Notes: generated by a model not told the origin, from the sequence alone. DNA of 64,000 nucleotides from Oligoflexales bacterium (GCA_965215515.1 OZ244057.1:576001-640000), one strand, 5' to 3'. Counted from the stretch's first letter, positions 9,610-44,482 are shown. Made by a program: numbers and translations.

Positions 9610-9933
9610 ATGGCATCTACATACAGGGGAGCAGTAGCTAGCATGGCAGCAACGGGCGGCAAAGGTGCACTGAAGGGAGTGCTCTTCGGGGCGGCGATCG
9701 GTGCTGCTAGCAGCTACCTGATCCACAAGGCGTTGCAGAAAAGGGATAGCAAGACGAGGCGGCAGACGCTACTCAACCTCGATAAGTTTTCAGTCTCTGC
9801 ACCGACAAGAGGGCAAGGTGTACAGAACTTTCGGTTGTCAGCTCCTGACGTAGATGCGGGAACAATGTATAAAAAGCGTATGAACCACAAGGAGATGAAG
9901 GCACTGGTGCTGAAGGTTGTGGCGTGGAGCTAG
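9610..9933 (+). pseudogene. Chimeric remnant: glycine-zipper lipoprotein fragment fused to a recombinase N-terminus
   Basis: 5' part matches 41966-42412; 3' part matches 43058 (MYKKRMNHKEMKALVLKVVA); the intervening genes are deleted. Confidence 0.8.
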
Positions 9934-11630
9934 AAAGCGGTAAGTAGCCGCGCTGCGCGGCCTTGCTGAACAGCACATCAGGAGCTGGCAACCGTTTAAT
10001 AAGGAGTGGCCAACGCTTGAAGGGGCAGTTTACTTGCGTCTATCGGATGATACGCAGGTAGCCGTTGAACGGGGATCGCTGGAACAACAAATTCACATCG
10101 CCATCTCTGAAGCCGTATATCGATCAGAGCAGGAGCGGATGAATTACAGGATTACCGAGTTCTACATTGAGCCAGGCATCACGGGCACGCATGGCAATCG
10201 CCCTCTGTTGCCGCTTTCTCGCTCCACATCAGGCTACAGCACAACATCAGCCTCAAAAAACATGGCAATAGCAATTACACCAGCGAACAAGAAGCGAGCT
10301 AGCAAGCGAGCGTTACAAAAAGGCGGCGTAGCGGTTCTTCAGGCTGTGCCAGAAATACGATTGCGAGATATGCCTTAGAGGACTGCCGTTCAACCCTAAC
10401 GACCCCGCTTCGATCTTGCAGCTTGATCAGCTGGCAGCCTTTGCTGAATTTGAATCACGGACGACCTCCAAGCGTATCAGGGAAAGTAATCACTCTGCTT
10501 TGTTGACATCAGGGAAGTTTAACACCCACTACCCGCTATTGGGGTTTGATGTGGTCAGAAATGAATACGGCGAATGCACAGGCATCTACAAGCCCAACAA
10601 GGCAGAGCTAAAGCAGGTTGAGCTGATTATGAAACAATTTCTGCGCGTAGACAGGTTTAATCTGCTGATAGATTGGTGCAGGAAGATGAACATCAAAACC
10701 AAACGAGGCGAGAATTTCACTAAACACAGTATCAGAACGCTGCTGACCAATCCCCGTTACGTCGGCAAGTGGTATCGCAACAAGCACAACGAGGACAAGC
10801 GGCAGAGTAAGCTCATGCCTTATGAACGCTACACCGAAGTTAAATTGTGGCACGGTTGCGTTATCGACGAAGGGCTGTGGCTGCGAATTCAAAACAAGGT
10901 TAAGGAAATAGGCGAGTCGCGAGCACAGGCAATCAATCACTGCTACCCCTTATCTGGTTTGTTGTTTTTCAATGACGAATCAACTTTTGTCGGTAGTAGC
11001 GCATGGGGAAGAAAACGAAGATCGACCTACTACCACAATAGAGTTAACAAAATCAGGATCAGGACAGAGATTTTCGAGACGGCGGTAGAAACGGTCTTGC
11101 GTCAGATCATTGAAAACTCTCCAGAGTTTCAAGCAAGCATTGCAAATCATTCGGCACAAAAAGACACCGCGCTTAGTGTCGCAGCGGGAAAAATTGCCGA
11201 GATCGACACGAAACTAGACGAACTGGCAGACGAGAGGCAACGACTAGACCGCCGTTTGAACTTTCTGCTCGAAGACGATGATCTTGAGATGGCACGCTCT
11301 TTCAGGGAGGAGTATAGGGAGCGAGTTTCTGCTATGAAAGGCGAGGAACAGGAGCTTGCCGACAGGAAGCAACAGCTGCAGTTTGTGCAAAGACAGCTGG
11401 ATGAAACAAAGAACGTCAGCAAGAGCAGTTGGCTAGAGCATGTCAACCAAGCGCGATAAACTGTATAGGCAAGAAGGACTTGGTCGCACTCCAGTCTGCT
11501 TATAGGCGACTGTTTCACAAAATTATTGTTCACCCGTTGGAAAATGCAAAATTGCAGCTGGAGTTTGTTTTTAACGAAGTGTTTACATCTGCTTGCAGGG
11601 GAATGGACAAAATATGTCCCTCGGTTGATA
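9865..11630 (+). pseudogene. Large serine recombinase, copy A, disrupted at several sites
   Basis: YLRLSDDTQ, EPGITGT, AAFAEFESRTTSKR, LLTNPRYVG; paralog of 43058-44420; insertions and frameshifts near 9925, 10205, 10270 and 11450. Confidence 0.85.
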
Positions 11631-11682
11631 GAATGGGCTCTAGAAATGAAGAGACAGAATTTTTGTTCAACCAACAGTTATC

Positions 11683-12145
11683 AATGAAATCAAGCAGCTA
11701 TGACACTTCTTCTCTTATCCCTGAACCCCTGATCAAACAAAAATACCTCGAAGATTGCCTTTCAATTCGAGAAATTGCTAGAGAGTTTTCTTGTTCAAAA
11801 ACACACATCAGAAACCAGCTTCTCAAATACAACATCCCCATTAGAGAACCATCCAAGTATCACAAAGATCACAGCCGCACTTATGGAAAACGGAGGGTCG
11901 GTGGCAAAACCGTAGACCACAAAAGAGAGCAGAGAACCATTGCCACCATCAAAGAGATGTATAGCGAGGGAATCAAGCCAACTTCAATCGCTAGATTCTT
12001 GGATACCATGAAAACTCCCACCAAACAGCAGGGTAAGGGCTGGCATCATCACACGGTTATCACAATTCTCAAGCGAGAAGGGCTATATGTAACAAAAAAC
12101 AAACCTAGGAGGAGAAAATGGACACCATCGTCAATCTCATCATGA
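11683..12145 (+). CDS. Small HTH plus recombinase-like DNA-binding protein
   Basis: LSIREIAREFSCSKTHI (HTH) and YG...IARFLD...GKGWHHHTVITIL. The ORF-track start at 11429 includes the recombinase tail. Confidence 0.55.
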
Positions 12146-12279
12146 CAGTATTACTCTTGGCTGGAGCAGGCTATGCTGCCAAGAAGCTTTTACCCCTCGT
12201 GCAGAAAACCGCTATCGAACGCATCGACAAGGGTCTATCCTCTACTGAGGAGCTTACCCGAAAACTGACGGGGGAGTAG
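12118..12279 (+). CDS. Small membrane protein (53 aa)
   Basis: AGGAGG RBS; MDTIVNLIMTVLLLAGAGYAAKK... with one hydrophobic helix. Confidence 0.55.
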   Translation: MDTIVNLIMTVLLLAGAGYAAKKLLPLVQKTAIERIDKGLSSTEELTRKLTGE

Positions 12280-12751: not shown

Positions 12752-12782
12752 AATAAGCTTGTGAAAAACAAGCTTATTTTTT
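12752..12782 (+). terminator. Intrinsic terminator-like hairpin
   Basis: aataagcttgt-gaaaa-acaagcttatt followed by tttt. Confidence 0.6.
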
Positions 12783-12800
12783 GCTAGAGGGTACACCTGC

Positions 12801-14957
12801 TTGCTCTTAAACCCTCAGTTAGTCTTGGACAGTCGTAGCAATGGGGGTTGTTGGCTAGTTATGGTGAAAAGAATAATATACTCAATTCTAGCATGGACAA
12901 GATGGCTGTTGACTGGCACGGAAGACTCTATAACGCCTAGACCACCTGCCATCACACGGCAGAGAAGAAAGGATTCAAACAGCCATAGAGAATCTCTGAG
13001 TAGTCAAGATAGCCTGACTTACGAAACCCCCACCGAACAACCTTCAGATGACGATGTATCTGCAGTGTCAACAATCACCACAGTCAATGAGTCTTGCTCA
13101 GTCCCCTCTAATGATGCGTCACCATCTCCAAACACTAATGGTCTGGAGCTAGAGTCTTCCAGCCTGTCAGAAGCCACGCAAAAAGAGATGAAGATGCCAT
13201 CTACACAGCAGTCTGCTAGAATTCCACAAAAAACTTCGCATGAAGTCGTCAAACAACCCGGAGGCAACTCTCATCAAGAAATGCCTAATACTGCAGGTGC
13301 AGGCAATATAGAACCCAAGAAGCCAAAACTGCCACGCAAGATTGGAGGAAGACGTAGGCCAAAAGAACAAAAAACAACGCGACAGCCACCAAAACCTCGT
13401 CCAGAATTGATTTGTCGCGAGAATTGTGAATCTCAGCAGTGGGAGATAATCCTGACCGCAGGTGACGAATGCCAGATCAAGACCGTACATCAAAACGGTG
13501 TTTCTTTGGACATGAGAGACCATGAGTATCGCCTCTCGTCACTCACCAAACCATTGCAAATAGTTCTTGAGAGCGGGGAAGAATATGGATTCCCACTGTT
13601 TGAAGAGAAGCCATTTATTTTTAAATTGAGAAATGACTGGAAAGACAAGGGGCGTAAGACGGCTAGCATCAACAGGGGGCACTTTCTTGTAATTGTACCA
13701 AAAGAATGGGAACGAACAGGTCATGTTCCAGTTGAACCAAGCTTTTGCATGAACAAAAGTTTTAAGGCACATTATTTTTTCGGAGAGGATAATTATTTGG
13801 AAGAAGACATTGGAGGTTTTAGTCAGTGTGCTTTACCAACCAAATCAATTTTTAAGCTTACTGGCCAGCGTGTCTTCGATGATTCTGATGGCGGTGAACT
13901 GTTTGTTGGTGCTGTCCCAAGCTTAAAGCTTTTACAAGATATTGGTTGGGTGCGAATAGGAGAGGAGAAAAAAGGCGGTTGGAAGGGTGAAAATTTCAAT
14001 TCCAATGAGCAGAATATAACAGACATATTGAGTAATCGTGAGGGACATTTTTTTATCAGAGTTTATGATAACGAAGCTAGACAACTGGATAGTGGCGAAT
14101 TTCGTTATCTGAGTGATCTCGAAAAAATACTTGTGAATGGTAAGCCATACGAAAGAAATATGGTTCTTGTCCCGCCGCCGACTGGCTACCCTACGATAAA
14201 CGTGAGTTTCATTAGCAAAAATAACACAACCCTGCGTCCTATCTTGATGCACGATACGCAACACACTAAAGTGCAGGGAAGTAACCTCATTGTCGAGGCA
14301 CACCCAGATGGAGACAGTATATCTTGTAAACTTGAAAGCAACACAGGCAGTGTTGATCTCATATTAAATCTGCCGCGTATCTGGTGGAAAATTACCAGTG
14401 GTAAGTCTGATGAGTGGCATGACACACCACTTGTAATGACACGGCAGGAATTTTCTAAACATGCCAAACTGGATACCTATATCCAAATCCGTTTGTCACA
14501 ACGATTACGACATATTGGTGTTGGTTTCAACGACGAGTTAGAGCGAAAGTATAGTCGGGAGGGAGGTAAAAATGGCATTAACATCAGGTTGAAGGATTTC
14601 ATCGATTACTCACAAATAGATCAAAGGCTGGATAAGGATGCCGTGTTTAACATCAAGTGCGATGAAGAGATACTAACAATAATCAAGATTTCCTCCGATC
14701 CTATACCTGATAATGTCTCCGATGTAACCAAAAGTGTCACAGTATCTCAGCTGATAAAGCAAACAGGTAAACCAACAGCTATTGTAAGGAAAGTTACTGG
14801 TGGTTGGCGGAGAGGCAGGGGGTTTAGCATTGGCGAGATTAAAGATGCTGGGCTTACAGCTGCTGAAGCTATACACAGCTCTATTTCAGTTGACAAGCGG
14901 CGAAGAAGCACGCATTCAACTAACACAAAATTCATTAGGATACTGATAAATGCCTGA
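12801..14957 (+). CDS. Large hypothetical protein with a disordered N-terminus and a C-terminal ribosomal eL13-like domain; helicase partner
   Basis: C-terminus GRGFSIGEIKDAGL...ISVDKRRRSTH matches the eL13 signature; overlaps the helicase start. Likely ATG at 12861. Confidence 0.75.
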   Translation: MLLNPQLVLDSRSNGGCWLVMVKRIIYSILAWTRWLLTGTEDSITPRPPAITRQRRKDSNSHRESLSSQDSLTYETPTEQPSDDDVSAVSTITTVNESCSVPSNDASPSPNTNGLELESSSLSEATQKEMKMPSTQQSARIPQKTSHEVVKQPGGNSHQEMPNTAGAGNIEPKKPKLPRKIGGRRRPKEQKTTRQPPKPRPELICRENCESQQWEIILTAGDECQIKTVHQNGVSLDMRDHEYRLSSLTKPLQIVLESGEEYGFPLFEEKPFIFKLRNDWKDKGRKTASINRGHFLVIVPKEWERTGHVPVEPSFCMNKSFKAHYFFGEDNYLEEDIGGFSQCALPTKSIFKLTGQRVFDDSDGGELFVGAVPSLKLLQDIGWVRIGEEKKGGWKGENFNSNEQNITDILSNREGHFFIRVYDNEARQLDSGEFRYLSDLEKILVNGKPYERNMVLVPPPTGYPTINVSFISKNNTTLRPILMHDTQHTKVQGSNLIVEAHPDGDSISCKLESNTGSVDLILNLPRIWWKITSGKSDEWHDTPLVMTRQEFSKHAKLDTYIQIRLSQRLRHIGVGFNDELERKYSREGGKNGINIRLKDFIDYSQIDQRLDKDAVFNIKCDEEILTIIKISSDPIPDNVSDVTKSVTVSQLIKQTGKPTAIVRKVTGGWRRGRGFSIGEIKDAGLTAAEAIHSSISVDKRRRSTHSTNTKFIRILINA

Positions 14958-19197: not shown

Positions 19198-19381
19198 TAC
19201 CACCAGTAGTAGACCATTGCCGTAGCCTACAATCACATTCAGAAATTCACACAACCAAACTTGTTTGTTAAAACTGCAAGCTGATACATCAAAGTGGAAA
19301 ACAGTGCGTTAACTACCCTACCTTGATCGGTCGAGTGTGTGCAGGCTATCATATATTATATATCAGCTCTGGAGAAAATCA

Positions 19382-20570: not shown

Positions 20571-20602
20571 ATGCCACAAATATTTTCCTGCCATACCTCC
20601 TT

Positions 20603-24765: not shown

Positions 24766-24766
24766 A

Positions 24767-32359: not shown

Positions 32360-32716
32360 GTGAGGTATCGTATGCAAAACAAAACCAAGAACGAAACTCT
32401 TACTCTTGGTTGGCTTGATCCGAGAGACAACAGCGTCAATCACGCCGGAGTTAGCTTCTACAACCCTACCTACGGGGAGTATCTGCTGAAGATTGACGAA
32501 GAACCAAGCGAAAAACAATACTTCCTTAAACCCTCCTCTAGTGAGGGCGAGCACATTACCTACCGCATGGAGCTTGTGCTTAAACGTAAAGACGGACGCT
32601 TCCTAAAACGTCAACGTGTTGGCACTGGATATAGCAACGCAGAAACAGATGGCAATGTGCTTATCAACTACGGCTCGAAATTCAAAACTCTAGTGCTTTA
32701 TCTGAGAAATAAGTGA
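32360..32716 (+). CDS. Hypothetical ICE backbone protein
   Basis: Operon position; composition similar to the preceding ORF. Confidence 0.55.
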   Translation: MRYRMQNKTKNETLTLGWLDPRDNSVNHAGVSFYNPTYGEYLLKIDEEPSEKQYFLKPSSSEGEHITYRMELVLKRKDGRFLKRQRVGTGYSNAETDGNVLINYGSKFKTLVLYLRNK

Positions 32717-33003
32717 ACTCAAAAAAATTATGGGTAGTTTATCTTTCATGGTTTGCTGACACAGCTCTAGCGCAGTTTTGGGGTGGGAGTGGCTTTGAGG
32801 GTAAGATTAGATCGTTTACCGACAACCTGATGTCAGTCATTTTACCGGCGGTTGCCATACTTGGCTTACTTTACGCAGCTATGCTCGCTATCAGCGGTGA
32901 TGAAGGTGCAAAAAAACGCATGATCCTTGTGGTGGTGGCAAGTGTGATCGGATTTCTTGCTCCCCTGATCATTCGCTGGTTTCAATCAGCTGCTGTTGGA
33001 TGA
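32713..33003 (+). CDS. VirB2/TrbC-like pilin
   Basis: Signal peptide ending ALA plus two hydrophobic helices; directly before the virB3/virB4-like genes. Confidence 0.65.
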   Translation: MNSKKLWVVYLSWFADTALAQFWGGSGFEGKIRSFTDNLMSVILPAVAILGLLYAAMLAISGDEGAKKRMILVVVASVIGFLAPLIIRWFQSAAVG

Positions 33004-33322
33004 CATGATGGGAATCAACACTTCAGAGGTGCAGCGAAACTTAGATGCAAGGTTTAAGATCGGGGGTATTGAAGCCCTCGATCTACTGATAGCTCTGATA
33101 TGCAGTGCGATTATGAATCTGTTCTTCGGTGGCACAGCACTAGAGATTCCTCTAGTGCTTGGTTGTCCAGCACTCATTCTTGCGGGTTTTTACTTCGGTA
33201 AAAGGGGAAAACCAGAAAAATTTATGGTTCATCTTATTCACTTTTATTTAGAAGCGGGATTTTTCTCAGCAGGAGCAGAGCCAACAAAGTCTCTGCAAAT
33301 GCGAAGGAAGATTTATGCGTAG
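32996..33322 (+). CDS. VirB3-like membrane protein
   Basis: Two TM helices, about 105 aa, overlaps the VirB4 start. Confidence 0.6.
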   Translation: MDDMMGINTSEVQRNLDARFKIGGIEALDLLIALICSAIMNLFFGGTALEIPLVLGCPALILAGFYFGKRGKPEKFMVHLIHFYLEAGFFSAGAEPTKSLQMRRKIYA

Positions 33323-35738
33323 CCTCGCTAGTGAATTGGAGTTCTGGCACTTCGATGAAGACCTAATGGTTTTTAAAGATGGCTCACTCGGTGCAGGTTT
33401 TAAGCTGGCAGGGTTTGATATTACCTGTGCTACAGAGCAGGCTATCAATCAGATGAACAGAGGGCTGGAAAATTTGTTGATCTCTGCTGATGAGGGAATG
33501 AGGCTGCAAGTGTTTTACAAGCTGACACCGAATGTAACTGATCTTATAGATCAGCATCAAAAACTGTCTGGTTCTGTTACTGGTAATTATCAGCGAATTG
33601 CTGCTGCTCGTGTTAGGTTTTATCTCCAAAATCAAACTGACAAGAAATACTTTGTGCCTAACATTTTCTTTTTCATCCGTAGTAGACCCTATGCACTGAA
33701 AAAACAAAGTTTATTCGCATCAGATAAACAGTTTCAGCGGATTTCAAGAGAAGAGTTTGCTCGAAGGAAAGAGAGATTTCTCCGCTCTGTAAAGGGTATA
33801 GAGTCAGGTCTTGCTTCAGCGGCACTTGCTCCTAGCAGACTTAAACACGAGGAATGGTTCAATCTCATATTTGAATACCTGAACCTTGATCGTACAGAAA
33901 GGATCGGAGCAAGTTGTTACAAAGAGCCGCAAAGCTTTCTCAATCCCTCGGTCAGTGAACAGCTCACATTGACTGATTTCATTTGGGATAAGGACGCGAT
34001 AACGCTCGGCACATACATGTTTCGCACCATCACCCTTGCCACGCTGCCTGAAGGGCAGACATATGCAGCAATGGCTAACATGTTCGCTGCCGTGCCGTTT
34101 CATTTTTGGCTGAGCCAGTCCGTTCATCTGCTAGATCAGGCAAAGGCAAGGTCATCGCTGGAGATGAAACGCAGGATAGCACACTCAATGGCTTCGGGTA
34201 GCAAAAATGTTAGTGACTTAGATTCAGAAAACAAACTCGGACAGATCGAAGGCTTACTGGAGAATTTACTAGAGGGTTCAGAAAAGCTCGTATCATCTGA
34301 TTTCAATGTCATCATCTGGGGAAGAACCAAAAGTGAGCTAGACGATAAGACAGATGAAATCCTAAAAACCTTTCGCACATTGAATCAGGCAGAAGGGTTA
34401 CAAGAAACACTAGCAGGTAAAGAAGCTTTTTTTAAATCTATCCCCGGTGCTTGTCTAGGGATGCGGCACAAGAAGATGAAGTCCAGCAATGCTGTGCATC
34501 TGATGCCTGTCTTTGCTAGCTGGGCAGGTAATCCTAAACCAGTGTGTCTGCTGCCGACAAGAGATGGGCGGTTATTCTCGCTCGATCCCTATGCAGACCA
34601 CTTACCAGCTTGGAACGGTATCGTATTCGGCAGCTCAGGCAGTGGTAAAAGCTACACGATCGTGCAGTTGATGGCGATGTTTTACGGTAAGGTAAGCAAA
34701 GAAAACAGACCACGTATTGTCTGGATTGATAACGGTGCATCTTCAAAAAGACTAGTTGAGATATTAGATGGTGAGTTTTTAGACCTCGATTTGAACTCAG
34801 GTCTGTGTCTTAACATGTTCGATTTGAAAGAAGGAGAGATAACACCAAGTCCAGAGCGGATTCGTACAGTCTTAGCTGTCCTTGAGATGATTCTAAAAGA
34901 CGAAGATAAAAAAGCTCTCGGTAAGCGGGAGAAAGCTTTACTGGAAGAGCAAGTGCATAAGGTCTATGAGGATGCAAGTGGAAAGATACCTACTTTGTCA
35001 GATTTGAAAGAGTTGTTGGATAAACACAAAGATGCACAGATACGAAAGTTCGGTGAAATACTCTACAGCTGGACAGGAACATCAGCTTATGGACAGATGC
35101 TCGATGGACAAACCAACGTCAAACTCTCTAAAGACCTTGTTTCTATAGAGGTGCAGCATCTGAGCAACTATTCAGATCTGAAAGATGTCCTATTACTTCT
35201 TCTGACCTCTTACATTCAAGATGTGGCATCGTCTGATATTGGCAGGGAGTATCTGCTGATCATTGATGAGGCGGAGCGTCTGTTTCAGTCAGAGTTAGCA
35301 AGGCAAGTGGTAATTACCTGTTATCGCACTTGGCGCAAGTTCAAAAGCGGCATCTGGTGTTTGAGTCAGAACTACAAAGACTTTATGGCAGATAAAGCTC
35401 TTCGTGATGCTCTGATGACCAACACGACTAGCGTTATCATTCTGCGGCAGAGCAAGATTGATTGGAGTGATTTCAAAAAGACGTTCGATTTTAACGACAC
35501 ACAAGTGGAGCGTATCAAAAATCTGACAATCAAAAAGGGAGAATACAGTGAATTTTATTATCTGCAAGATGAGAACGAAGCGATCTTACGGCTTGTTCCT
35601 GAACCATTGAGTCACTGGTTTTCTACCTCAGATGCTAACGACAAGACCATGATTGCTAGTACAGAAAAACAGAATCCGAGTATGAGTAAGTTAGATGTTC
35701 TTAAATTGCTGGCTTCTCAACCTAAAAACAGGGGGTAA
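33315..35738 (+). CDS. virB4: VirB4/TraC-family T4SS ATPase
   Basis: GSSGSGKS Walker A, IDNGAS, IIDEAE Walker B, RTWRK, SQ motif; 807 aa. Confidence 0.85.
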   Translation: MRSLASELEFWHFDEDLMVFKDGSLGAGFKLAGFDITCATEQAINQMNRGLENLLISADEGMRLQVFYKLTPNVTDLIDQHQKLSGSVTGNYQRIAAARVRFYLQNQTDKKYFVPNIFFFIRSRPYALKKQSLFASDKQFQRISREEFARRKERFLRSVKGIESGLASAALAPSRLKHEEWFNLIFEYLNLDRTERIGASCYKEPQSFLNPSVSEQLTLTDFIWDKDAITLGTYMFRTITLATLPEGQTYAAMANMFAAVPFHFWLSQSVHLLDQAKARSSLEMKRRIAHSMASGSKNVSDLDSENKLGQIEGLLENLLEGSEKLVSSDFNVIIWGRTKSELDDKTDEILKTFRTLNQAEGLQETLAGKEAFFKSIPGACLGMRHKKMKSSNAVHLMPVFASWAGNPKPVCLLPTRDGRLFSLDPYADHLPAWNGIVFGSSGSGKSYTIVQLMAMFYGKVSKENRPRIVWIDNGASSKRLVEILDGEFLDLDLNSGLCLNMFDLKEGEITPSPERIRTVLAVLEMILKDEDKKALGKREKALLEEQVHKVYEDASGKIPTLSDLKELLDKHKDAQIRKFGEILYSWTGTSAYGQMLDGQTNVKLSKDLVSIEVQHLSNYSDLKDVLLLLLTSYIQDVASSDIGREYLLIIDEAERLFQSELARQVVITCYRTWRKFKSGIWCLSQNYKDFMADKALRDALMTNTTSVIILRQSKIDWSDFKKTFDFNDTQVERIKNLTIKKGEYSEFYYLQDENEAILRLVPEPLSHWFSTSDANDKTMIASTEKQNPSMSKLDVLKLLASQPKNRG

Positions 35739-35740
35739 CA

Positions 35741-36436
35741 CTGCAAAAGAAAGCTATTGGATTGTTACTAGTCTTTTCTCTTACTTCCTCTCCTGCACAT
35801 AGTTTCTGGGGAGATGGGGGTGCAGGGTGGGTACAGATACCATATCTGGTGAAAATTCTACTTGAGAACTACAAACGCTATCAGCAACTCAAGCTGATGA
35901 TGCAGCAAGCAAGAAGATCGGGTGATTATTTTAGGACAGTTCATCAAGGGTTAGAAAACATCACAGGTCTTTTAGACAGCTTGCCAATCACTGATCAGGG
36001 GGTACTTAAGGATTTACGAAGTTTTAACGGGTCACTCAAAACCATATCGCAAATCTACGGAAAAATACCCAGATCACCGGAAGAAGCACTGCATAGGCTG
36101 CATGACCAAACCGCGGCTGAATCACTACAGATGGTGAATTCATTTAAGGATTACTCGAAGGCACAGGAAAGCAACTCGCAATCGCTCAGGATTCAGAGCC
36201 AATCAGCTTCACCTAAAGGAGCTGCAAGGGCTACCGCGGTTTCCAATGCGATGATTTTGGAAAGTATCAATCAACTGATCCGCTTGCAAAGTCAAAGCCT
36301 GAAAATGCAAAGTGAGCAGCTAGCTATGTTGAATAGGCAGGATAAGAAAACTATCGCCTCCTATCAGGAGGTTGATAAAAGTATAGGCAGTGCCTTCAAG
36401 AATTTCAAACGCCAAGAAAAATTCGTAAAATTTTAG
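35741..36436 (+). CDS. VirB5/TrbJ-like exported protein
   Basis: Signal peptide and Gln-rich helical body. The frame extends to CTG 35741 after a GGGGG RBS-like run (ORF-track start 35762). Confidence 0.5.
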   Translation: MQKKAIGLLLVFSLTSSPAHSFWGDGGAGWVQIPYLVKILLENYKRYQQLKLMMQQARRSGDYFRTVHQGLENITGLLDSLPITDQGVLKDLRSFNGSLKTISQIYGKIPRSPEEALHRLHDQTAAESLQMVNSFKDYSKAQESNSQSLRIQSQSASPKGAARATAVSNAMILESINQLIRLQSQSLKMQSEQLAMLNRQDKKTIASYQEVDKSIGSAFKNFKRQEKFVKF

Positions 36437-37303
36437 ATGTTCGACCAGTTGGTAGGGGTAGCAAAAGATATTCGGGGGGAGACACTCGAACTTTACTGGT
36501 TACTTTTAACTCCGTTGGTGCTGTTACTCATCATACTGGAGTTTTTCAAGTATCAGAAAGACAGTATAGATGTTTTTGATATTATCAGACGAGTTGTCAT
36601 CTCGATGGTGCTGCTGTTTTCTTTTGAATATACGATCAATGCCCTTTCTACGATTGGGGATGGGATCGTTAGCAAAATAGATAAGACCGCTGATGTTTGG
36701 GATGTATTAAAAAATCTGGGGCCGAATTACCAAGACTCTTCCAGTGGGCTATTTGATATAAGAGGACACATTCTTTACACACTGGCACTGCTTTCTTATC
36801 TCATCGCCTACTTAGGATTTTTTGTCACCGATGCACTTGTTCACTTTGTCTGGATCGTTCTGTATACGGTATCACCCCTGATGATTTTAGCTTACGTTGC
36901 TAAAGCAACAGCTAACGTGACTGCGAACTTATACAAAGGGCTAGTTAAGGTAGTTATCTGGAAAATTATGTGGACGATTCTTGGTGCGCTGCTACTGAAA
37001 TTAGCCATGACCCCCCAGACAGGAGAGGACATGGAAGGCTACTTAGTAGCGATGATTACTAATCTGTGTATTGGACTCAGTATGCTTTTTATTCCTATCG
37101 CAACTCGTTCACTAATCAACGATGGATTGGAGAAGGCAGCATCAGCATTAGCCGTTGCTCCAGCAATAGCTGCGGTGAATACAGCAAAGGTCTACACCAA
37201 GAAAGCGGCTAGACGAGGTTCTGCGAAAGCATCGGGGACAGAACAACCAACTACTAAATCACAGGATAATCCTGTCAGAGAGAGTGTCGACAGGTTTAGG
37301 TAA
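36437..37303 (+). CDS. VirB6/TrbL-like polytopic membrane protein
   Basis: Five or six TM helices; SPLMILAY motif; operon position. Confidence 0.65.
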   Translation: MFDQLVGVAKDIRGETLELYWLLLTPLVLLLIILEFFKYQKDSIDVFDIIRRVVISMVLLFSFEYTINALSTIGDGIVSKIDKTADVWDVLKNLGPNYQDSSSGLFDIRGHILYTLALLSYLIAYLGFFVTDALVHFVWIVLYTVSPLMILAYVAKATANVTANLYKGLVKVVIWKIMWTILGALLLKLAMTPQTGEDMEGYLVAMITNLCIGLSMLFIPIATRSLINDGLEKAASALAVAPAIAAVNTAKVYTKKAARRGSAKASGTEQPTTKSQDNPVRESVDRFR

Positions 37304-37340
37304 GAGCACATAAATCAATTATTTTGGAGGAAACATTGCT

Positions 37341-37922
37341 GTGAAAAAAGACTCTACACTTCGTGTGTGGACTGACGTTAACTCATTATTAAGAACTCAT
37401 AAACTTCTCAATCTAGGACTTATTTCAGTTTGTATATTACAGCTGTTCATCATTGCTACGATGTATTTTGCTGATCCTATCGTGGTCATTAAAGAAGATG
37501 GTAAACAACGCTACTTTGCGGGACGTAAGACTAGCTTACCTATATCTGAGGAGGCTGTTGAAGAATTCGTTGAAGGTTTTTTGCGCGTCCGCTACGAGTG
37601 GAACAAACTCGACCCCAAGGCAAAGCAGAAGAGCTTATCGCCAATCGTTACAGATGGATTACAGAAGAAGATGTTCAAGCTATTGACCCACCTCAAGGAT
37701 AAGGAGTTTCAGGGCAAAGAGACTTCGCAGGCAATCGTCAATATCAAAGTTAACGTTACCAAAGAGAAGGTAGTGGCAAGTTTTGATAAGCTTTTACGGA
37801 TTGAAGGAGTGCCGATTCCAGTGCCGACAACAGTGTCACTCAACATAATCAAAGGCACTCCCAACATCTGGAATCCAATAGGCTTGCTTGTCAATGGGGT
37901 GATCGAACACCAGTCTAAATGA
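37341..37922 (+). CDS. VirB8-like bitopic protein
   Basis: One TM helix, FVEGFLRVRYEW, C-terminal NPIGLLV. Confidence 0.65.
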   Translation: MKKDSTLRVWTDVNSLLRTHKLLNLGLISVCILQLFIIATMYFADPIVVIKEDGKQRYFAGRKTSLPISEEAVEEFVEGFLRVRYEWNKLDPKAKQKSLSPIVTDGLQKKMFKLLTHLKDKEFQGKETSQAIVNIKVNVTKEKVVASFDKLLRIEGVPIPVPTTVSLNIIKGTPNIWNPIGLLVNGVIEHQSK

Positions 37923-38653
37923 TGAAAAGCCTTATCTTGGTAAGCGTCTTGCTCTGTCACCATTCGGTGGCATGGGCAAGCGGGATCAGAACAGCTTATG
38001 TCAACGATACCAAGATGCAACCCATCTATCTAAAGATGGGTAAAGCATCGGTACTGAGGTTTGCAGAAAAACCCAAGAAAGTGGTTATCGGTAATCAAAA
38101 CTACTACTCGATTGAGTTTATCGACAACGATTTAACTATTCAACCACTAGGTAGAGTAGAAACGAATCTGTTTGTCTATACACCTTATCATACCTACGGG
38201 TTTATTCTGCGGGTTTGTCACAGCTGCCGTTATGACGATTTAGTTTATGTGAAGTGGAAGTCCAAGTATCAACCACCTCCTAAAATCAAAAAGGCGAAGA
38301 TCGTACCCGGATTTAAAGCAATTGGACTCAAGTTCAATGTGGGTGGAGGTATTTCAGCTACCGTTATCAAAACCACGGCTGATACTACTAGGCAGTTGCG
38401 GTTTGTTGATCTGCAATTGAAGAACAGTGGGAGAACGAAGATCAACATCACATCGGCAAGAATCGTAGCTACTCGCAGAAATGTTCCACTACCAAATCAA
38501 GGGTATGTTATCGAACAAGATTTTCTGAAGGCTGGTGAGATTACGAAGGCCAGATTATTTCTATCTGCAAAGGAGACAAGAGATTTTACCGTGAACGTAT
38601 TTGTAAATGCACACAAAGGAAGAGTCATCATTGCTCAAGGGTATCTGAGATGA
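37919..38653 (+). CDS. VirB9/TrbG-like core-complex protein
   Basis: Signal peptide; SVLRFAEKPKKVVIGN, LTIQP, TNLFVYT. Confidence 0.7.
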   Translation: MMKSLILVSVLLCHHSVAWASGIRTAYVNDTKMQPIYLKMGKASVLRFAEKPKKVVIGNQNYYSIEFIDNDLTIQPLGRVETNLFVYTPYHTYGFILRVCHSCRYDDLVYVKWKSKYQPPPKIKKAKIVPGFKAIGLKFNVGGGISATVIKTTADTTRQLRFVDLQLKNSGRTKINITSARIVATRRNVPLPNQGYVIEQDFLKAGEITKARLFLSAKETRDFTVNVFVNAHKGRVIIAQGYLR

Positions 38654-39585
38654 AGTATGCAAAGCAGATGCGGGCGTTTTTCCTCAAAAAAGAGGGTGGC
38701 AAGGAGGTTATCGACAGAAAAAGATTTTTTGGCGCGGTGAGTGTGATCTTGTTGCTTGGAGCTTTTTCTCTGCTCTTTCCCAAGACAGGTAGAGATTCCA
38801 GTGTTATTATTAACTCGGCAGAGCCGATAGATAGGGACAACTCTGAAGAGGTGGTAACACAGTCGTCTTCACCTAAAGTAACTGGGATGCTGCAAGCATC
38901 CCAGCAAAGGGGATATGAGAGTTTACATAGGATACATGCAAAGCCAGCCCCTAGAAAGGCGCAGAAGATAGAATACAAAGCTCCGCAAGTTATCGAGAGA
39001 AAAGGGACAGATAGTTTTACGGATAAACTGCCAGTAGGAACAAACCTCATAGGTAAACTCTTGACTGGCATAGATACCAGAGAGGTTAAACAATTCTACA
39101 AGGTGTTTCTTCCTTATGGAGGCAGAAGTAAACACGGTGGCAGTATACCGAAAAATTCAATTCTTTTTGGCACGGTTAGTTATCCCGGTAAAGGGAAGAA
39201 GGTGTTTATGCAATTCTCAAAAGCACTGTTGCCTGATGGAAGAGAGGTTGAATTGAAAGCACAAGCATTAAATGCAAAAGATTATTCGCCGGGATTAGTA
39301 GGAGAGTTTCACAGCAAGGCAATCGAAAGAGTTGCCTCGACTCTGGGTCTGACAATGGTATCGGCAATTACCGATACTCTCACCGAGAAACAAGTACTTG
39401 GCACAGAAGGGACTGTTACACCAAAAGCAACAACCAAGAATGCACTCTATCAGGGAATCTCTAAAGCAAGTGAGATGGAAGCACAGAGACAGATGGCAGA
39501 ACTCGGTGATGTGCAAGAATATGTCACGATCCCAGCAGGTCAAGAGCTGATCGTCAATCTTGTGACAACCTATCACAGTGAATAA
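38650..39585 (+). CDS. VirB10/TrbI-like protein
   Basis: TM helix, linker, LPVGT...IPKNSILFG...LLPDGR...GLVG...VTIPAGQ. Confidence 0.75.
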   Translation: MKYAKQMRAFFLKKEGGKEVIDRKRFFGAVSVILLLGAFSLLFPKTGRDSSVIINSAEPIDRDNSEEVVTQSSSPKVTGMLQASQQRGYESLHRIHAKPAPRKAQKIEYKAPQVIERKGTDSFTDKLPVGTNLIGKLLTGIDTREVKQFYKVFLPYGGRSKHGGSIPKNSILFGTVSYPGKGKKVFMQFSKALLPDGREVELKAQALNAKDYSPGLVGEFHSKAIERVASTLGLTMVSAITDTLTEKQVLGTEGTVTPKATTKNALYQGISKASEMEAQRQMAELGDVQEYVTIPAGQELIVNLVTTYHSE

Positions 39586-41036
39586 GGCCAAAAATGGTGA
39601 AGTGCTGGAGAACTTTGTTCTCATGCTGCTGTATTGCCCCTCTGTCTTTTTGCGGGTTTGTTTCTTCGGTCTGAGGCGTGTTGATTTCAAAGATTTAAAT
39701 ACGTGGTCATGGATATTTACTGTCACTGGAAGCCTTGCAATAGTGCTGTTCTTGACGTTGAGCTATCAGCAAGCGATGAACCTGTATTTGCTGCTGTTGG
39801 GTGCTCTCTCAGTGATTGGGCTATTCGTCTATGGCTTCAAACCTTTTAGAAAACACGTTCTGTTTCAAAAAGCCATAAAGCGATCTGGCTTAAAAAGTGC
39901 TATCGGGGAAATGCCAAAGATAAAAGCCATCATCCCTATCGGAGAAAATCGCTCTAAGGTGGTTGTGGAGACATTGGGTGTTGGCCTCAATAAGTTTAAA
40001 GCACAAAGTGATAGTTTAACCGCTGGTTTTCGTCAAAAAATCGAAAGTATTGCTCATGGCAAAGACATGGGCAAGGTTGAGATTGTTCTGTGTGAAGGTG
40101 ATCTGCCGAAGATGGTAGGGTTTCATGAGTTGTATGCCCACGTTAAAGAGCCGTATTCGTTCATCGTTGGGCAGAGCATAAAGGGTGTGGTAGTGCAGAA
40201 AATTCAATCTCTGCCTCACTTACTTATATCTGGAGCGACAGGTGGCGGTAAATCGGTATTCTTCCGCTTCCACTCGCTTTGCTTGTGGAAGCTGTTTTGC
40301 CGCTTTCTAGCTCCTATGCTTTCACTGCTGAAAAGCTCGCCACACATTCAACTGTATCTCTTGGACTTGAAGCGTGGAGCGAGCAAGCGGCAGACAAGCC
40401 CCATGAGCGTAGCGAATGGAGGTCAAGGAATTTGGAGCACTGCTCAACGTCAGGATAGCAGCAGATGAGACGGAGGCGACGAACATTCTGGAGTCTCTTG
40501 TTGCTGAGATGCACCGCCGCTATGAAATCTTGGAGCAAAGTGGACACAAGTCGATCGACCCTGCGAGGGACAAGCTAGATTTGATCGTGGTGGGTATAGA
40601 TGAAGCGGCAGCGTTGTTTGGCAAAGGAGCAAGCAAATCTGCTCGTGAGTGCATGGGCGAGCTAGCTCGTTTGGCTAGAGCGGCTGGAATTCACCTTATA
40701 CTCTCCACACAAAAGCCAGTGAAAGAAGCCATTAGCACAGAGATATTGGATAACTTATCGGGACGAATGACCTTCAGGATGGTTTCAACTGCGGCTTCAA
40801 ACGTGGCGATGGGCGGAAGCTACGCTCAGAAGTTACCCGCAATCAAAGGACGCGGCATGTGGAGCAATGGCAGCGAACAGAAGCAGGTGCAAGCACCTTA
40901 TGTTGATGACGAATTGATTGAAGTAGAACTGGAGGTGATTAATCAAGAGTTTGCAGATGGCATCAGGAAAAATTTCAATTCACTTTTGGAGGTAACGGAT
41001 GATGACAAAATATCAGAGACAGCTAACCATGTTTGA
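39578..41036 (+). pseudogene. FtsK/SpoIIIE-type ATPase (candidate coupling protein), disrupted by two short insertions
   Basis: PHLLISGATGGGKS, LDLKRG|VE, IDEAA, ARAAGIHLILSTQKP; foreign segments at about 40266-40316 and 40380-40416. Confidence 0.85.
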
Positions 41037-41796: not shown

Positions 41797-41965
41797 GAAC
41801 ATGCAGGGTGCTTTTACTATATGCCCCCTATATCGTCTAAGTTGGGGCAGGAGGTGTGATTTAATATGTTGAATTTACTTGATTTAATGAGATGAGGTGT
41901 CTAGCGGTCAATAATTCGGGGGTTATTTTTCAGAGATCATTTTTAACAACCTATTAGGAGGTTTC

Positions 41966-42412
41966 ATGAAACAGAAGGTGATGGTGATGTGCTTGGTGTT
42001 GAGTGCCGCGTTAGCGGCTGGATGTGCAACGTTGCACAGGTCTATGTCTGTGGGTGTGGGCATAGGCATAGGGACAGGAGTAGCGGCAAACATGGCAGCA
42101 ACGGGGGGCAAGGGTGCGATGAAGGGCGCACTCTTCGGCGCGGTGATCGGTGCTGCTAGCAGCTACCTGATTCACAGTGCTTTGGAGAAGAGAGATGCCA
42201 AGACGAGGAAGCAGACGCTACTTAACCTCGATAAGTTCTCTGTCTCCACACCAACAGGCAGGCGAGGCGTGCAGGACTTTCGGCTGTCCGCTCCTGACGT
42301 TGACAAAGAATGTTTCGATTGGGAGGTGCGAGGCAATCAGCTAGTGCAACAACATTGCGTGTGGACGATCAGGGGTAACGCCACATGGCAACTAAACACA
42401 AGGAGGCGATGA
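41966..42412 (+). CDS. Lipoprotein with glycine zipper
   Basis: Lipobox LAAGC; GxxxG repeats. Confidence 0.7.
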   Translation: MKQKVMVMCLVLSAALAAGCATLHRSMSVGVGIGIGTGVAANMAATGGKGAMKGALFGAVIGAASSYLIHSALEKRDAKTRKQTLLNLDKFSVSTPTGRRGVQDFRLSAPDVDKECFDWEVRGNQLVQQHCVWTIRGNATWQLNTRRR

Positions 42413-42727
42413 ATGAGTGCAAAACAGAAGGAAATGTGTAGGGTGCTGTTGGACAAGGAGCAGGCTAGCCTCGTTAGCGGGCTAGTCGCCAAGTTGCGAG
42501 GTGACTACTGCAAGGTAGACAGCTCGAAGCTGCTGAACCAGATCGTGGCGATCTTCTTTCAGAAGTACGCGGCGCAGGAGTATGACAGCATCGCCACAAC
42601 GTTCTTCGACAAACGCGGCTACCTGCGCAACCTCATCAACACCGCCCCGATCGAGGACATAGACAAGTCTATCAAGACTTACTTAGGCAAGGGGCGCACG
42701 GTGAAGGTGCGAAAGCAACAGCCTTGA
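42413..42727 (+). CDS. Hypothetical protein
   Basis: AGGAGG RBS; abuts the lipoprotein gene. Confidence 0.55.
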   Translation: MSAKQKEMCRVLLDKEQASLVSGLVAKLRGDYCKVDSSKLLNQIVAIFFQKYAAQEYDSIATTFFDKRGYLRNLINTAPIEDIDKSIKTYLGKGRTVKVRKQQP

Positions 42728-42767
42728 ATTCAAATGTGTTGCGCTGTAACATTGAAAGGAGCGTGCT

Positions 42768-43076
42768 ATAACAAATGAAAATTCGGGAAGGTTTTGTAAA
42801 AAATGCGGCAAATTTAAACTCTGGGATTGTTTCAGCAAGAAGCCTGGTGGTCGGAACGGGCGGGACAGTGCTTGTAAAGACTGCCGCAAGCGGGCACAGG
42901 TCAGCAGGAGAAAGAAATTGCGTGCTAACAAGCACATGGTGATTGATGGTGAGAATTTGGTAATTAAACACCGTATCGTTGGCGACCCATTGAAAGTAGA
43001 TATAGATGGCATCGCCATGATTATCGCTAACGCCTACCACAACAGGAGTGAGGACTTATGTATAAAAAGCGCATGA
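42768..43076 (+). CDS. Zn-finger protein (CKKC...CKDC) with ATA start; candidate recombination directionality factor
   Basis: Open 102-codon frame absent from the ORF track; AAGGAG 6 nt upstream of ATA; overlaps the recombinase start. Confidence 0.5.
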   Translation: MTNENSGRFCKKCGKFKLWDCFSKKPGGRNGRDSACKDCRKRAQVSRRKKLRANKHMVIDGENLVIKHRIVGDPLKVDIDGIAMIIANAYHNRSEDLCIKSA

Positions 43077-44482
43077 ACCATAAGGAGATGAAGGCTCTGG
43101 TTTTGAAGGTCGTGGCGGATTGCCGCGGCCTTGCTGAACAGCATATCAAGAGCTGGCAGCCGTTCAATAAGGAGTGGCCAACGATTGAAGGAGCGGTTTA
43201 TTTGCGACTGTCTGATGATACACAAGTAGCCGTTGAGCGTGGATCGTTGGAGCAGCAAATTCACATCGCCATCTCTGAAGCACAGTATCGTTCGGAACAG
43301 GAGCGGATGAACTACAGGATTACCGAGTTCTACATTGAGCCAGGCATCACGGGCACGCATGGCAATCGCCCTCTGTTGCCGCTTTCTCGCTCCACATCAG
43401 GCTACAGCACAACATCAGCCTCAAAAAACATGGCAATAGCAATTACACCAGCGAACAAGAAGCGAGCTAGCAAGCGAGCGTTACAAAAAGGCGGCGTAGC
43501 GGTTCTTCAGGCTGTGCCAGAAATACGATTGCGAGATATGCATCAGAGGACTGCCGTTCAACCCTAACGATCCTGCTTCGATCCTACAACTTGATCAGCT
43601 AGCAGCTTTTGCTGAGTTCGAGTCTCGAACAACCTCAAAGCGTATCAGGGAAAGCAACCACTCTGCGTTGCTAACTTCAGGGAAATTCAACAGTCACTAT
43701 CCGCTGTTGGGGTTTGATGCGGTAAAAAACGAGCATGGTGAACATACTGGCATTTACAAGCCCAACAAGGCAGAACTGAAGCAGGTTGAGTGGATTATGT
43801 CATCGTTCCTGCGAGTGGACAGATACAAGACTCTACTTGATTGGTGTAGGGGGAAGAATATCAAGAGTAAGCGAGGTAGAGACTTTACATTAGTTAGCAT
43901 CAGGGGTCTGCTGACAAACCCTCGCTATATCGGCAAGTGGTATCGCAACAAGCACAACGCTGGCAAGAGACAGAGCAAGCTCATGCCCTATGAGCGTTAT
44001 ACTGAGGTTAAGTTGGATCATGGCTGCGTCATATTGACACGCGTTTGAGCTTCCTACTCGAAGGCGATAAAATGGAGATAGCACAGTCTTTCAGAGATGA
44101 GTATGAGAGACAGTTTTTAGACCTGAAAGACGAAGAGAGGGAGCTTATCGACAGGAAGAGGCAGCTTCAGTTACTGCAAAGACAGCTCGATGAAGCACAA
44201 GATGCTAGTAAGAGTGGGTGGTTAGATCATGCCAACAAGGCCATCAGCTGCATTAGGAAGAAGGATTTGATCTCGCTCAAATCTGCCTACAAGCAGCTCT
44301 TTCAGAAGATCATCGTTCACCCTCTGGATAGCACAAGATTGCAGTTGGAGTTTATCTTTAAGAGTGCGTCCACATCCATCCGCATGGGTGTGGACAAATT
44401 CTGTCCCTCGGTAGATTTGGTGGAGCATATCGGAATCGAACCGATGACCTCGGCAATGCCATTGCCGCGCTCTACCAACTGA
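43058..44482 (+). pseudogene. Large serine recombinase, copy B (disrupted; C-terminus reads into the tRNA antisense strand)
   Basis: YLRLSDDTQ, AEFESRTTSKR, LLTNPRYIG; same lesions as copy A at about 43372-43500, plus a deletion of roughly 0.4 kb at about 44035. Confidence 0.85.

Follow-up and report, generated by a model that had tools for sequence, protein, structure and literature searches.

What made the breaks in the mobility genes of a conjugative element (ICE) of an Oligoflexales bacterium, and did one small sequence make them all? The question arises from the stretch of DNA analysed here (64 kb in full, hereafter the window), in which a short motif recurs at lesions of large serine recombinase and FtsK genes. 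A first-pass annotation had read its copies as scars of a tiny REP- or RPE-like mobile unit, or of templated repair from a common donor. All five copies are indeed where it had placed them and in both orientations, with none expected by chance: GTGGAGCKAGMAAGCGG matches the window exactly at four places (9924+, 10211-, 40374+ and 43379-), the expectation from 100 shuffles being 0.00, and a fifth copy with two mismatches lies at 40300- against 0.06 expected. A profile search of the 64 kb with the repeat unit found no copy beyond those listed in Table 1. Alignment with intact ICE paralogs of the same genome places all five at indels or replacements that these paralogs lack, and each segment is a copy of the same small, dispersed repeat. 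The motif is probably the conserved core of a modular, genus-restricted mini-repeat that is written into new sites and then sorted by selection.

Table 1. Mobility genes, repeat-derived lesions and neighbouring features (positions within the window).
Feature	Position	Strand	Basis
Large serine recombinase pseudogene A	9865..11640	+	Pfam Recombinase on ORF pieces; paralog alignment
Site i, recombinase A	9925..9955	+	Alignment to intact paralogs and copy B; nhmmer E=3.4e-5
Site ii, recombinase A	10205..10226	-	Paralog alignment; profile search
Site iii, recombinase A	10267..10330	+	Paralog alignment
T4SS module of ICE	32360..39585	+	Pfam; tblastn
FtsK/SpoIIIE-type ATPase gene of ICE	39578..41036	+	Pfam FtsK_SpoIIIE; paralog alignment
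FtsK lesion 1	40269..40315	-	Paralog alignment; nhmmer E=3.3e-6
FtsK lesion 2	40380..40416	+	Paralog alignment; nhmmer E=7.3e-8
Large serine recombinase pseudogene B, ICE end	43058..44417	+	Paralog alignment; protein match
Site ii, recombinase B	43373..43394	-	Identical to copy A; within 229-nt identical run
Site iii, recombinase B	43435..43498	+	Identical to copy A
tRNA-Ala(GGC) adjoining recombinase B	44418..44493	-	ARAGORN; Rfam

The lesions are not assembly artefacts. In a MAG-type assembly of one contig, a short and GC-rich sequence that keeps appearing at frameshifts might suggest adapter carry-over or faulty assembly or polishing, but the contigs of three runs (contigs, not raw reads, were compared) show 0 differences from the lesions, with 3x depth over the tract that is present three times in the genome, site iii of recombinase B included. 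Further, contigs from one run of a second study hold both related filled and empty forms, the family is found in the genomes of two other species, and its copies have diverged together with their flanks. The chance of an artefact is therefore negligible.

Both recombinase genes of the window are pseudogenes and were compared with intact paralogs at 1630.7-1632.6k and 125.3-127.1k of the same genome. At site i, a truncated sense unit of 31 nt (TGGAGCTAGAAAGCGGTAAGTAGCCGCGCTG) stands in place of GATTGC and adds in-frame TAG and TAA stops to recombinase A; the same lesion is found in the copies at 4.2k and 29k of this genome and in one copy of G002, a genome of the same genus. Site ii consists of 22 nt of an antisense unit in place of GAGTT after GNRP, a net gain of 17 nt that shifts the frame, and a longer unit is kept at this position in the 1758k copy of the window's genome (~48 nt) and in the 2343k copy of G002 (~51 nt). 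At site iii, a 64-nt patch (..GAGCTAGCAAGCGAGCGTTACAAAAAGGCGGCGTA) belonging to a second module of the family replaces 53 nt coding for FV(I)IKEIARLVRDLEIWK in the catalytic domain. Recombinase A, which lies beside a remnant element, carries sites i to iii and then later stops (three stops within the protein match); recombinase B carries sites ii and iii and, by protein match, a central deletion of ~120 aa at ~44030. As the recombinases also carry deletions and other stops, the repeat is for them only a possible cause of lost mobility of the ICE.

The FtsK gene is interrupted, giving the ORFs 39578-40468 and 40416-41036, and is colinear with an intact 460-aa paralog except at two inserts; the references were intact paralogs of the same genome at 1634.5-1635.9k and ~129-130.4k. 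Lesion 1, directly after Walker A, is a 47-nt antisense unit in place of CGACC, and its net gain of 42 nt keeps the frame, reading FHSLCLWKLFCRFLAP. Thus, of the earlier statement that every copy lies at a damaged site, the indel at each copy holds, but this one leaves the frame intact. At lesion 2, 37 nt in sense orientation are cleanly inserted between GGAG and TGGAG and cause a frameshift; the insert equals one unit of a 41-nt array at 1759.06-1759.32k of the genome. Empty forms of both sites (CAACC in the case of lesion 1) occur in contigs of run X1. Because the two inserts are the only visible defects of the gene, it is plausible from the alignment that they disabled the FtsK part; that the lesions immobilised the ICE overall is unproven.

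The T4SS module (pilin, a TraC/VirB4-like protein of 807 aa, a TrbI/VirB10-like protein and others) has open ORFs that align by tblastn, colinearly and over almost their whole length, with two or three other ICE copies; the profile search found no unit in it. The units of the window are thus confined to the recombinase and FtsK genes, as the emphasis of the first-pass annotation on mobility genes implied. The tRNA-Ala(GGC) gene is presumed to be the integration site of the ICE; no attL repeat of at least 16 nt was found in the window, and Rfam searches of the window and seven related loci returned no family besides tRNA. The motif had also been linked to the tRNA/att core through a 7-nt match (TGGTGGAGC...). 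The match is literal, yet it looks like chance and is not meaningful, because the repeat core begins at GGAGC, the preceding dinucleotide varies (of 84 copies, 45 have GC, 16 GT and 16 AA), and the genome contains GTGGAGC 206 times.

The family core reads GGAGC[G/T]AG[A/C]AAGCGG and is followed by a short A-rich spacer and a variable tail to give units of 27-51 nt. These are found solo or as head-to-tail arrays of 2-13 units at ~12 loci, with a copy number that varies by locus. The array periods are 27, 29, 39, 41, 57 and 95 nt, and arrays with periods of 29, 41 and 95 nt, which are not multiples of 3, all lie outside intact ORFs. To some units the second module (GAGCTAGCAAGCGAGCGTTAC..GCGTAGCG) is joined; it adjoins host arrays at 1528.6k, 2091.7k and 2099.0k and is plentiful in G001, another genome of the genus. 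G001 also contains a longer repeat of ~360 bp with the core inside. The core was counted 61 times in the window's genome, 295 times in G001 and 291 times in G002, and was found in none of the remaining 28 of the 31 genomes of the order that were searched; the reversed core, used as a control, had no match across the genome search. By their marker genes, the genomes are 91-94% complete. A separate scan across species genomes detected the unit at 59 loci of just two further records, both of them MAGs of Oligoflexales.

In host DNA, units are intergenic or lie within ten conserved genes, among them DapD, NuoC-NuoD and LptF/G. All ten genic copies are in sense orientation and in frame, in genes confirmed by Pfam, although in a DNA methylase the unit precedes the Pfam domain, and the real start may lie downstream of it. 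DapD contains ten 13-codon copies, and NuoC-NuoD a block of units in its linker. As the inserts sit in this linker and at places where orthologs differ in length, they would be expected on the protein surface, compatible with the fold. In the three genes compared (NuoC-NuoD, DapD and an oxidoreductase), the inserts are absent from orthologs of the same genus and the same family, which indicates that the family was still active after the species separated. The motif had been taken to mark lesions as such, a reading weakened to the extent that it is common in intact genes. The genome-wide count shows this to be partly the case, and with ten intact host genes carrying the core in frame the reading is not supported.

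Copies in ICE DNA occur in either orientation and in any frame. ICE-like DNA, delimited by BLAST similarity alone, makes up 6% of the genome and holds 13 of 33 loci in a regex census (binomial p=2.5e-8) and 9 of 26 in a profile census (p=1.3e-5). Twelve of the 13 lie within serine recombinase or FtsK genes, a bias counted on non-independent paralogs; counted as distinct sites, ICE DNA has 6 of 23 (p=0.002). Within the recombinase gene family, at least seven distinct positions hold sequence of the repeat family. By their tails, the ICE copies appear as a sequence subfamily of their own: with two tail types defined by eye after viewing the sequences, the ICE-type tail has all 13 exact matches in ICE DNA and the host-type tail all 29 in host DNA. 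In G002, the 'ICE' tail is found at 19 places that are not assignable to either class.

The genome contains at least seven ICE copies or remnants, mostly decayed, and lesions are shared among them. Recombinases A and B agree at every base over a run of 229 nt, against ~85% identity in the rest of their alignment; one G002 copy has all three recombinase lesions and two others are intact; both FtsK lesions are common to two copies in the window's genome, with two differences in 37 nt. As lesion alleles are mosaic among the ICE paralogs and a second species, with the 229-nt tract identical, gene conversion is indicated. The dN/dS of 0.07 between lesion-bearing copies equals that between intact copies, which fits mosaic patching better than long neutral decay; alternatively, the lesions could be very recent in each copy.

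As regards the copying of units, insert ends could be defined at all five window sites by alignment to intact paralogs. Neither terminal inverted repeats nor a target duplication of fixed length, the hallmarks of MITEs, were found at the five ICE and two host junctions. Instead, target bases are replaced at four of the five ICE sites and, judged by eye, apparently also in NuoC-NuoD and DapD; junctions show either 5-53 replaced bases or an ambiguous microhomology of 4-5 nt. The likeness of insertion sites to the unit falls at percentiles of 0.46-0.99 within their genes, mostly 0.5-0.9, and is not convincing. Seven units or arrays gave DNA folding z-scores of +0.95, -3.84, -1.23, -0.53, +0.82, -2.16 and +2.14. 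Five are thus no better folded than shuffles (z > -2), one composite is borderline (-2.16), and the unit of FtsK lesion 1 (-3.84) is the sole clear hairpin, a palindromic hairpin of the RPE type not being found. Collectively, a DNA-templated, transposase-independent process is favoured.

The main competing proposal is a classical non-autonomous transposon of MITE or REP type, moved by a transposase in trans with a preference for targets in recombinase and FtsK genes. A dispersed, multicopy family in both orientations, the ~360 bp core-containing repeat of G001, an 8-bp hairpin in one unit variant and the 12 of 13 ICE loci in two genes, a possible target preference, would all suit it. It is nevertheless unlikely, given the missing inverted repeats and consistent duplications, the lengths of 22 to 64 nt with target bases replaced, and the single clearly structured unit or array among seven. 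A mobilising gene of the kinds that the first-pass annotation had proposed to look for (RAYT/TnpA/RT) did not emerge either: Y1_Tnp/RAYT (PF01797) has no match in G001, G002 or G003, despite ~290 copies of the repeat in each of the first two, and the only Y1 gene in the window's genome is an IS200/IS605 remnant beside a TnpB-like stub, with no family repeat nearby. No reverse transcriptase (RVT_1) was matched in the window's genome, a single contig that is 93.9% complete by markers. It should be noted that at 91-94% completeness a mobilising gene could be missing from the assemblies. The label 'REP-like' is hence not borne out, the units being mostly non-palindromic and Y1/RAYT absent from the repeat-rich G001 and G002.

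It could also be argued that one old pseudogene allele was shuffled among ICE copies, with insertion no longer going on. The repeat would then be a fossil, concentrated in recombinase and FtsK genes through survivorship, since only ICEs that cannot excise stay in the chromosome. The three recombinase lesions common to two species, the FtsK lesions shared by two copies, the mosaic identity patterns and the many decayed remnants agree with this. As a full account it is improbable, since the species-specific inserts in NuoC-NuoD, DapD and the oxidoreductase point to activity after the split and family sequence occupies several different recombinase positions; it accounts for persistence, not origin, and is largely compatible with the preferred explanation. 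A regulated, reversible switch of integrase and FtsK, worked by the host or the ICE through gain and loss of units (phase variation), is highly improbable. Array copy number does differ between loci, precise loss of the single unit within GGAG/TGGAG of FtsK lesion 2 is conceivable, and another recombinase copy has a 41-nt array, a period that is not a multiple of 3. But loss of a unit cannot restore the 53 nt of catalytic-domain coding replaced at site iii, recombinases A and B have further stops and a deletion, and contigs of three same-study runs, which drop rare variants, showed no insert length variants.

On the preferred explanation, that of a mini-repeat written into new sites and sorted by selection, new copies would be inserted across the genome with an existing unit as template, for example in break repair or template switching. 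In host genes, selection would spare sense, in-frame copies in loops and linkers, read as hydrophilic peptides of the ERESGKQAWRSEA type. No such filter would act in ICE DNA, where copies could be kept whatever their orientation or length. The window would then record five events, three sites in the large serine recombinase and two in the FtsK-type ATPase, which remove part of the catalytic domain and shift frames, leaving an ICE with open T4SS genes whose own integrase and DNA pump presumably do not work. Homologous recombination or gene conversion would have passed the lesion tracts among the many ICE copies, those of a second species included, and immobile copies may be those that persist. 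A more specific and doubtful version has units written into breaks with neither transposase nor reverse transcriptase, the breaks perhaps made by expanded Rpn/YhgA-like PD-(D/E)XK nucleases; the ICE subfamily would preferentially enter integrase and FtsK genes and spread by gene conversion as a heritable 'grounding' allele that fixes sibling ICEs as islands.

Rickettsia is the best-known case of selfish repeats lying in frame within housekeeping genes. RPEs are lineage-restricted selfish repeats with no known transposase; they are intergenic and, with unusual frequency, interrupt unrelated housekeeping genes in frame, coding for a conserved peptide that the protein tolerates (PMC10969869). The mini-repeat is likewise lineage-restricted, in frame in unrelated conserved genes and absent from the orthologs checked, so that 'RPE-like' fits its behaviour in the ten host genes. 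In contrast to RPEs, which are ~100-150 bp, palindromic and solo, it has mostly non-palindromic units of 27-51 nt in arrays of up to 13; further, its host is an Oligoflexales genus, not Rickettsia, and its ICE-borne subfamily also disrupts ICE genes. MIRUs are ~40-100 bp units found in variable tandem arrays at a few dozen dispersed loci, oriented with genes and with reading frames that matter, between genes of operons and outside conserved domains or linkers; they are not known to be associated with conjugative elements. Head-to-tail arrays of differing copy number at many loci resemble MIRUs or a dispersed minisatellite, but the mini-repeat also lies within genes and in conjugative-element DNA. 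Its modular build recalls BOX of Streptococcus pneumoniae, boxA-boxB(n)-boxC with a variable tandem middle module, whose elements cluster and insert into one another (PMC10969869). BOX elements lie between genes, are structured and are believed to be moved in trans, whereas the mini-repeat is often in coding DNA and is without terminal inverted-repeat modules. With REP/BIME it shares shortness, abundance, lineage specificity and a GTAG tetranucleotide in module GCGTAGCG, but not palindromes, RAYT/Y1 (in G001 and G002) or repeats flanking the Y1 gene of the window's genome. Overall, the family behaves as RPEs of Rickettsia or a dispersed minisatellite do.

A second, unrelated lineage with such repeats is thereby added, with a much shorter, non-palindromic and array-forming unit. 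The host-gene copies offer a natural series of tolerated peptide insertions, and one and the same repeat can be viewed side by side where it would be filtered, in essential genes, and unfiltered, in mobile DNA. The ICE family provides a case in which a single repeat subfamily appears to have disabled integrase and DNA-pump genes again and again, with gene conversion homogenising these genes. Should copying indeed proceed without a transposase, bacterial templated insertion would have a tractable example here. For annotation, the inserts account for ICE genes called 'frameshifted' and for housekeeping proteins of excessive length in these MAGs.

Small repeat units of 27–51 nt replace or interrupt coding sequence in the integration and DNA-translocation genes of an integrative conjugative element (ICE), and lie inside open frames of host genes as well. 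The ICE is encoded in a low-GC stretch of the window (~3.3k–44.4k) that ends at tRNA-Ala(GGC). The window itself is C1 576001-640000 of a single-contig genome (G000) of 2.18 Mb and 52.6% GC, in which this ICE family is represented by at least seven copies or remnants. Its genes encode a T4SS pilin, a TraC/VirB4-like protein of 807 aa, TrbI, FtsK/SpoIIIE, Replic_Relax and large serine recombinases. Open recombinase frames of 605 and 598 aa with Resolvase and Recombinase domains, found in two ICE copies of G000, served together with an intact 460-aa FtsK paralog as internal references for the lesions. For the T4SS ORFs of the window, two or three further ICE copies gave near full-length single alignments, so that breakage within the conserved module is confined to FtsK and the recombinase. 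A search of the window for attL found no repeat of at least 16 nt of the tRNA end.

The motif GTGGAGCKAGMAAGCGG is matched exactly at four places in the window (9924 and 40374 on the forward strand, 10211 and 43379 on the reverse), with none expected from 100 dinucleotide-preserving shuffles, and at 40300 on the reverse strand there is a fifth copy that differs at two positions. These positions, proposed in the first-pass annotation, were borne out by reading of the sequence and by alignment of recombinase pseudogenes A and B. Further, a search of the 64 kb with a profile of 55 distinct units gave the five lesion places and no other significant match. The proposal that the segments disable the integrase and FtsK of the ICE also held. 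The residues lost at site iii are the conserved arginine-containing motif of the serine recombinase catalytic domain. In the FtsK gene, the two inserts are the sole visible defects. At most for FtsK can the lesions be regarded as the cause of ICE immobility, and the suggested tie between the motif and the tRNA/att core was rejected as a chance resemblance.

Unit-related lesions in the recombinase pseudogenes and FtsK gene of the window ICE
Lesion	Gene	Position in window	Change relative to intact form
Site i	Recombinase A	9925-9955	31 nt in place of GATTGC
Site ii	Recombinases A and B	10205-10226 and 43373-43394	22 nt in place of GAGTT
Site iii	Recombinases A and B	10267-10330 and 43435-43498	64 nt in place of 53 nt coding FV(I)IKEIARLVRDLEIWK
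FtsK lesion 1	FtsK/SpoIIIE	40269-40315	47 nt in place of CGACC, directly after Walker A; net +42, in frame
FtsK lesion 2	FtsK/SpoIIIE	40380-40416	clean 37-nt insertion between GGAG and TGGAG

Contigs from three runs of one study showed no differences to the stretch, and contig depth was threefold over a tract present three times in G000. In a run of another study, forms skipping each FtsK insert were found, with CAACC or AGGGT instead; site ii occurs there in an intact-type form, and 109 nt of the lesion tract are present too. The run comparison is one of assembled contigs and is blind to rare variants. Runs X1 and X2, with only 0.08 and 0.05 of the sampled words, are no guide to habitat.

The lesion alleles are shared among ICE copies in an uneven manner. 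Recombinases A and B are perfectly identical over 229 nt spanning sites ii and iii and ~85% identical elsewhere; by our own arithmetic, a chance run of this length at ~85% identity has a probability of the order of 1e-16. The same recombinase lesions occur in a third G000 copy and in one copy of the same-genus genome G002, with a fuller unit at site ii (~48 nt in G000, ~51 nt in G002), while sites i, ii and iii are all intact in two other G002 copies. A second G000 FtsK copy carries both FtsK lesions; over the 200 nt upstream it shows full identity with another, intact paralog, so this copy is a recombinant. Further, dN/dS between lesion-bearing copies (0.07) is no higher than between intact copies (0.02–0.11), a misfit with long neutral decay of one old pseudogene. 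Repeated patching of lesion tracts by gene conversion among ICE copies fits the pattern.

In the whole of G000 the motif has eight exact copies and 54 with at most one mismatch, most of them in tandem arrays with a period of 27, 29, 39, 41, 57 or 95 nt at ~12 loci. FtsK lesion 2 is identical to one unit of a 41-nt array located in another recombinase copy, and the site iii patch corresponds to a second module, one that flanks host arrays. The 15-nt core was counted 61 times in G000 and 295 and 291 times in the same-genus genomes G001 and G002, with none in the other 28 genomes searched (one of the same family, 27 of the same order) and none for the reversed pattern used as a control. A 25-nt version, scanned across one genome per species, was found at 59 loci, all of them in two records with Oligoflexales MAG titles; in these, the core forms part of a rich mosaic of modules. 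Among known RNA families, tRNA was the sole match on the window and seven related loci. A repeat of ~360 bp with the core (..CCTCCGTTGTCTTGGCA..GTGGAGCTAGCAAGCGGCAAAAAAGCCGATCAGCGAGAAACTC..) occurs at roughly 20 or more loci in G001 (OY282434.1), for example at L077 444-801; G000 lacks this repeat, and no Rfam family matches it. This element was considered as an insertion-sequence end and rejected, the flanks of three copies sharing only ~200–370 bp and mosaic fragments, with no common ORF.

The motif had been taken as a marker of lesions, which was not borne out, for units also lie inside intact host genes. Ten host genes carry a unit inside an open frame, on the coding strand in all ten: by Pfam, DapD-like, NuoC-NuoD, VTT-pyridine-nucleotide oxidoreductase, a 1250-aa DnaJ-domain protein, ComEC-like, LptF/LptG, a UvrD/PD-(D/E)XK helicase-nuclease, a DNA methylase, BioD-BioA and a 4HBT thioesterase. 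The unit peptides are of the ERESGKQAW/ELASGKQAW type in seven, GA(S/R)KRQ in two and KAANKPGEAEWS in one. In-frame blocks at G000 C1 350.4-350.8k (L061), 1528.5-1528.8k (L062) and 2099.0-2099.2k (L063) lie in three housekeeping genes; the DapD-like block comprises ten 13-aa copies, and those in the NuoC-NuoD linker and the oxidoreductase ~75–80 aa each. These three inserts are missing from the G001, G002 and same-family G003 orthologs and thus arose after the species split. Inside intact genes the array period is 39 nt; arrays with periods of 29, 41 and 95 nt are located beyond intact frames. In a Thr-Gly-Tyr-Thr cluster at G000 C1 2012.5-2012.8k (L116 1530-1820), the real tRNA-Gly(TCC) is adjoined by three pseudo-copies of its 3' half, in tandem and of 95 nt each, with a unit inserted in each between T arm and anticodon stem.

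In-frame selfish repeats are known from Rickettsia, where palindromic elements occur in frame inside genes (PMC10969869). The host-gene pattern matches that account; unlike those elements, these units are far shorter, form arrays and are mostly not palindromic. Of the suggested scars of a tiny REP/RPE-like unit, the small dispersed repeat and its RPE-like behaviour stand, while the REP-like part falls away with the lack of Y1/RAYT genes in the relatives and of palindromes in most units.

BLAST similarity was used to delimit ICE-like DNA, which amounts to 6.0% of G000. In a regular-expression census, 13 of 33 loci fall in it (p=2.5e-8) and the other 20 in host DNA. ICE-like DNA has 9 of 26 loci in a profile census (p=1.3e-5) and 6 of 23 distinct sites when paralogous copies are merged (p=0.002). 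Recombinase or FtsK genes account for 12 of the 13 ICE loci; at the 13th, an ICE copy that is intact in other respects carries an antisense unit in frame within a small sigma-r4-like ORF. In ICE genes, units occur in both orientations and all frames. The ICE tail CCAYRARCRWAGCGAR has 13 matches in G000, all in ICE DNA, and the host tail AAGCCnnGCGRAGCG has 29, all in host DNA, a split that is descriptive only, both tails having been defined by eye. G002 has 19 occurrences of the 'ICE' tail and 23 matches to the recombinase family, and in G001 both counts are zero.

Several features of the ICE and its surroundings were also observed. An in-frame antisense second-module insert (..LHRSLPSSLHALRHIRCANEW..), judged against the 1631k copy, lies in the recombinase C-terminal coiled-coil region at G000 C1 125.6k, 27.9k and 152.6k; it is present in the 598-aa recombinase at 125k, whose frame is otherwise open, and in two further copies. 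Intact members of the recombinase family (G000 L081, L085; G002 L082, L087) abut tRNA-Pro, tmRNA, tRNA-Ala(TGC) and tRNA-Arg(CCT), the 3' end of each gene reading into the tRNA. A helix-turn-helix and 'Recombinase'-domain fragment (..IPESVIKRKYLENRLSTRAIA..GKGWHNCTV..), at window 11640-12145 and G000 27.1-27.7k and 151.8-152.4k, is in each case fused to a recombinase copy, downstream of it, as would result from insertion of a second small element at the end of the ICE. A 1415-aa protein encoded in the cargo (window 14950-19197) combines DEAD/Helicase_C with a C-terminal MrfA Zn-binding (MZB) domain; an adjoining 718-aa ORF of unknown family (12801-14957), RmuC, two AbiE toxin-antitoxin sets, a histidine kinase and a sigma-54 activator also belong to the cargo, which may be a defence island. 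Past the ICE, host DNA at 55225-62182 encodes four successive DUF285 (BspA-like) repeat proteins, the largest of 1100 aa with six repeats.

How the units are copied was weighed between three routes. Movement by transposition is argued against by the lack of inverted termini and of a fixed duplication, by the replacement of target bases at most sites and varying inserted lengths, and by the absence of a Y1/RAYT gene from the repeat-rich relatives G001 and G002. Copying through reverse transcription is opposed by the finding of no RVT_1 in G000. With the evidence counting against both, DNA-templated copying is favoured, in which existing units would serve as templates during repair or replication. 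Target-site resemblance to the unit gave percentiles of 0.46–0.99 in what is a weak test, and microhomologies at the NuoC-NuoD and DapD junctions are impressions by eye. A RAYT/REP link was separately considered and rejected: G000 has a single Y1_Tnp, which belongs to an IS200/IS605 remnant and lacks a family repeat in its vicinity, and G001–G003 have none.

A role in unit copying for PF04754 nucleases (Transposase_31, Rpn/YhgA-like PD-(D/E)XK) is a lead only. Rpn/YhgA-like proteins promote RecA-independent recombination in E. coli. The PF04754 gene set is enlarged in this bacterial family: matches number 14, 58, 8 and 5 in G000, G001, G002 and G003 and 0 in a more distant same-order genome, and do not track the core counts of 61, 295, 291, 0 and 0. 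Some of the G000 genes adjoin ICE remnants (26.6k, 151.4k, 280.0k). Finally, a search of a public protein collection with the NuoC-NuoD insert peptide, a poor guide to how far the unit has spread, gave one match among 8000 scored candidates, a PF04754-type protein carrying an in-frame unit.
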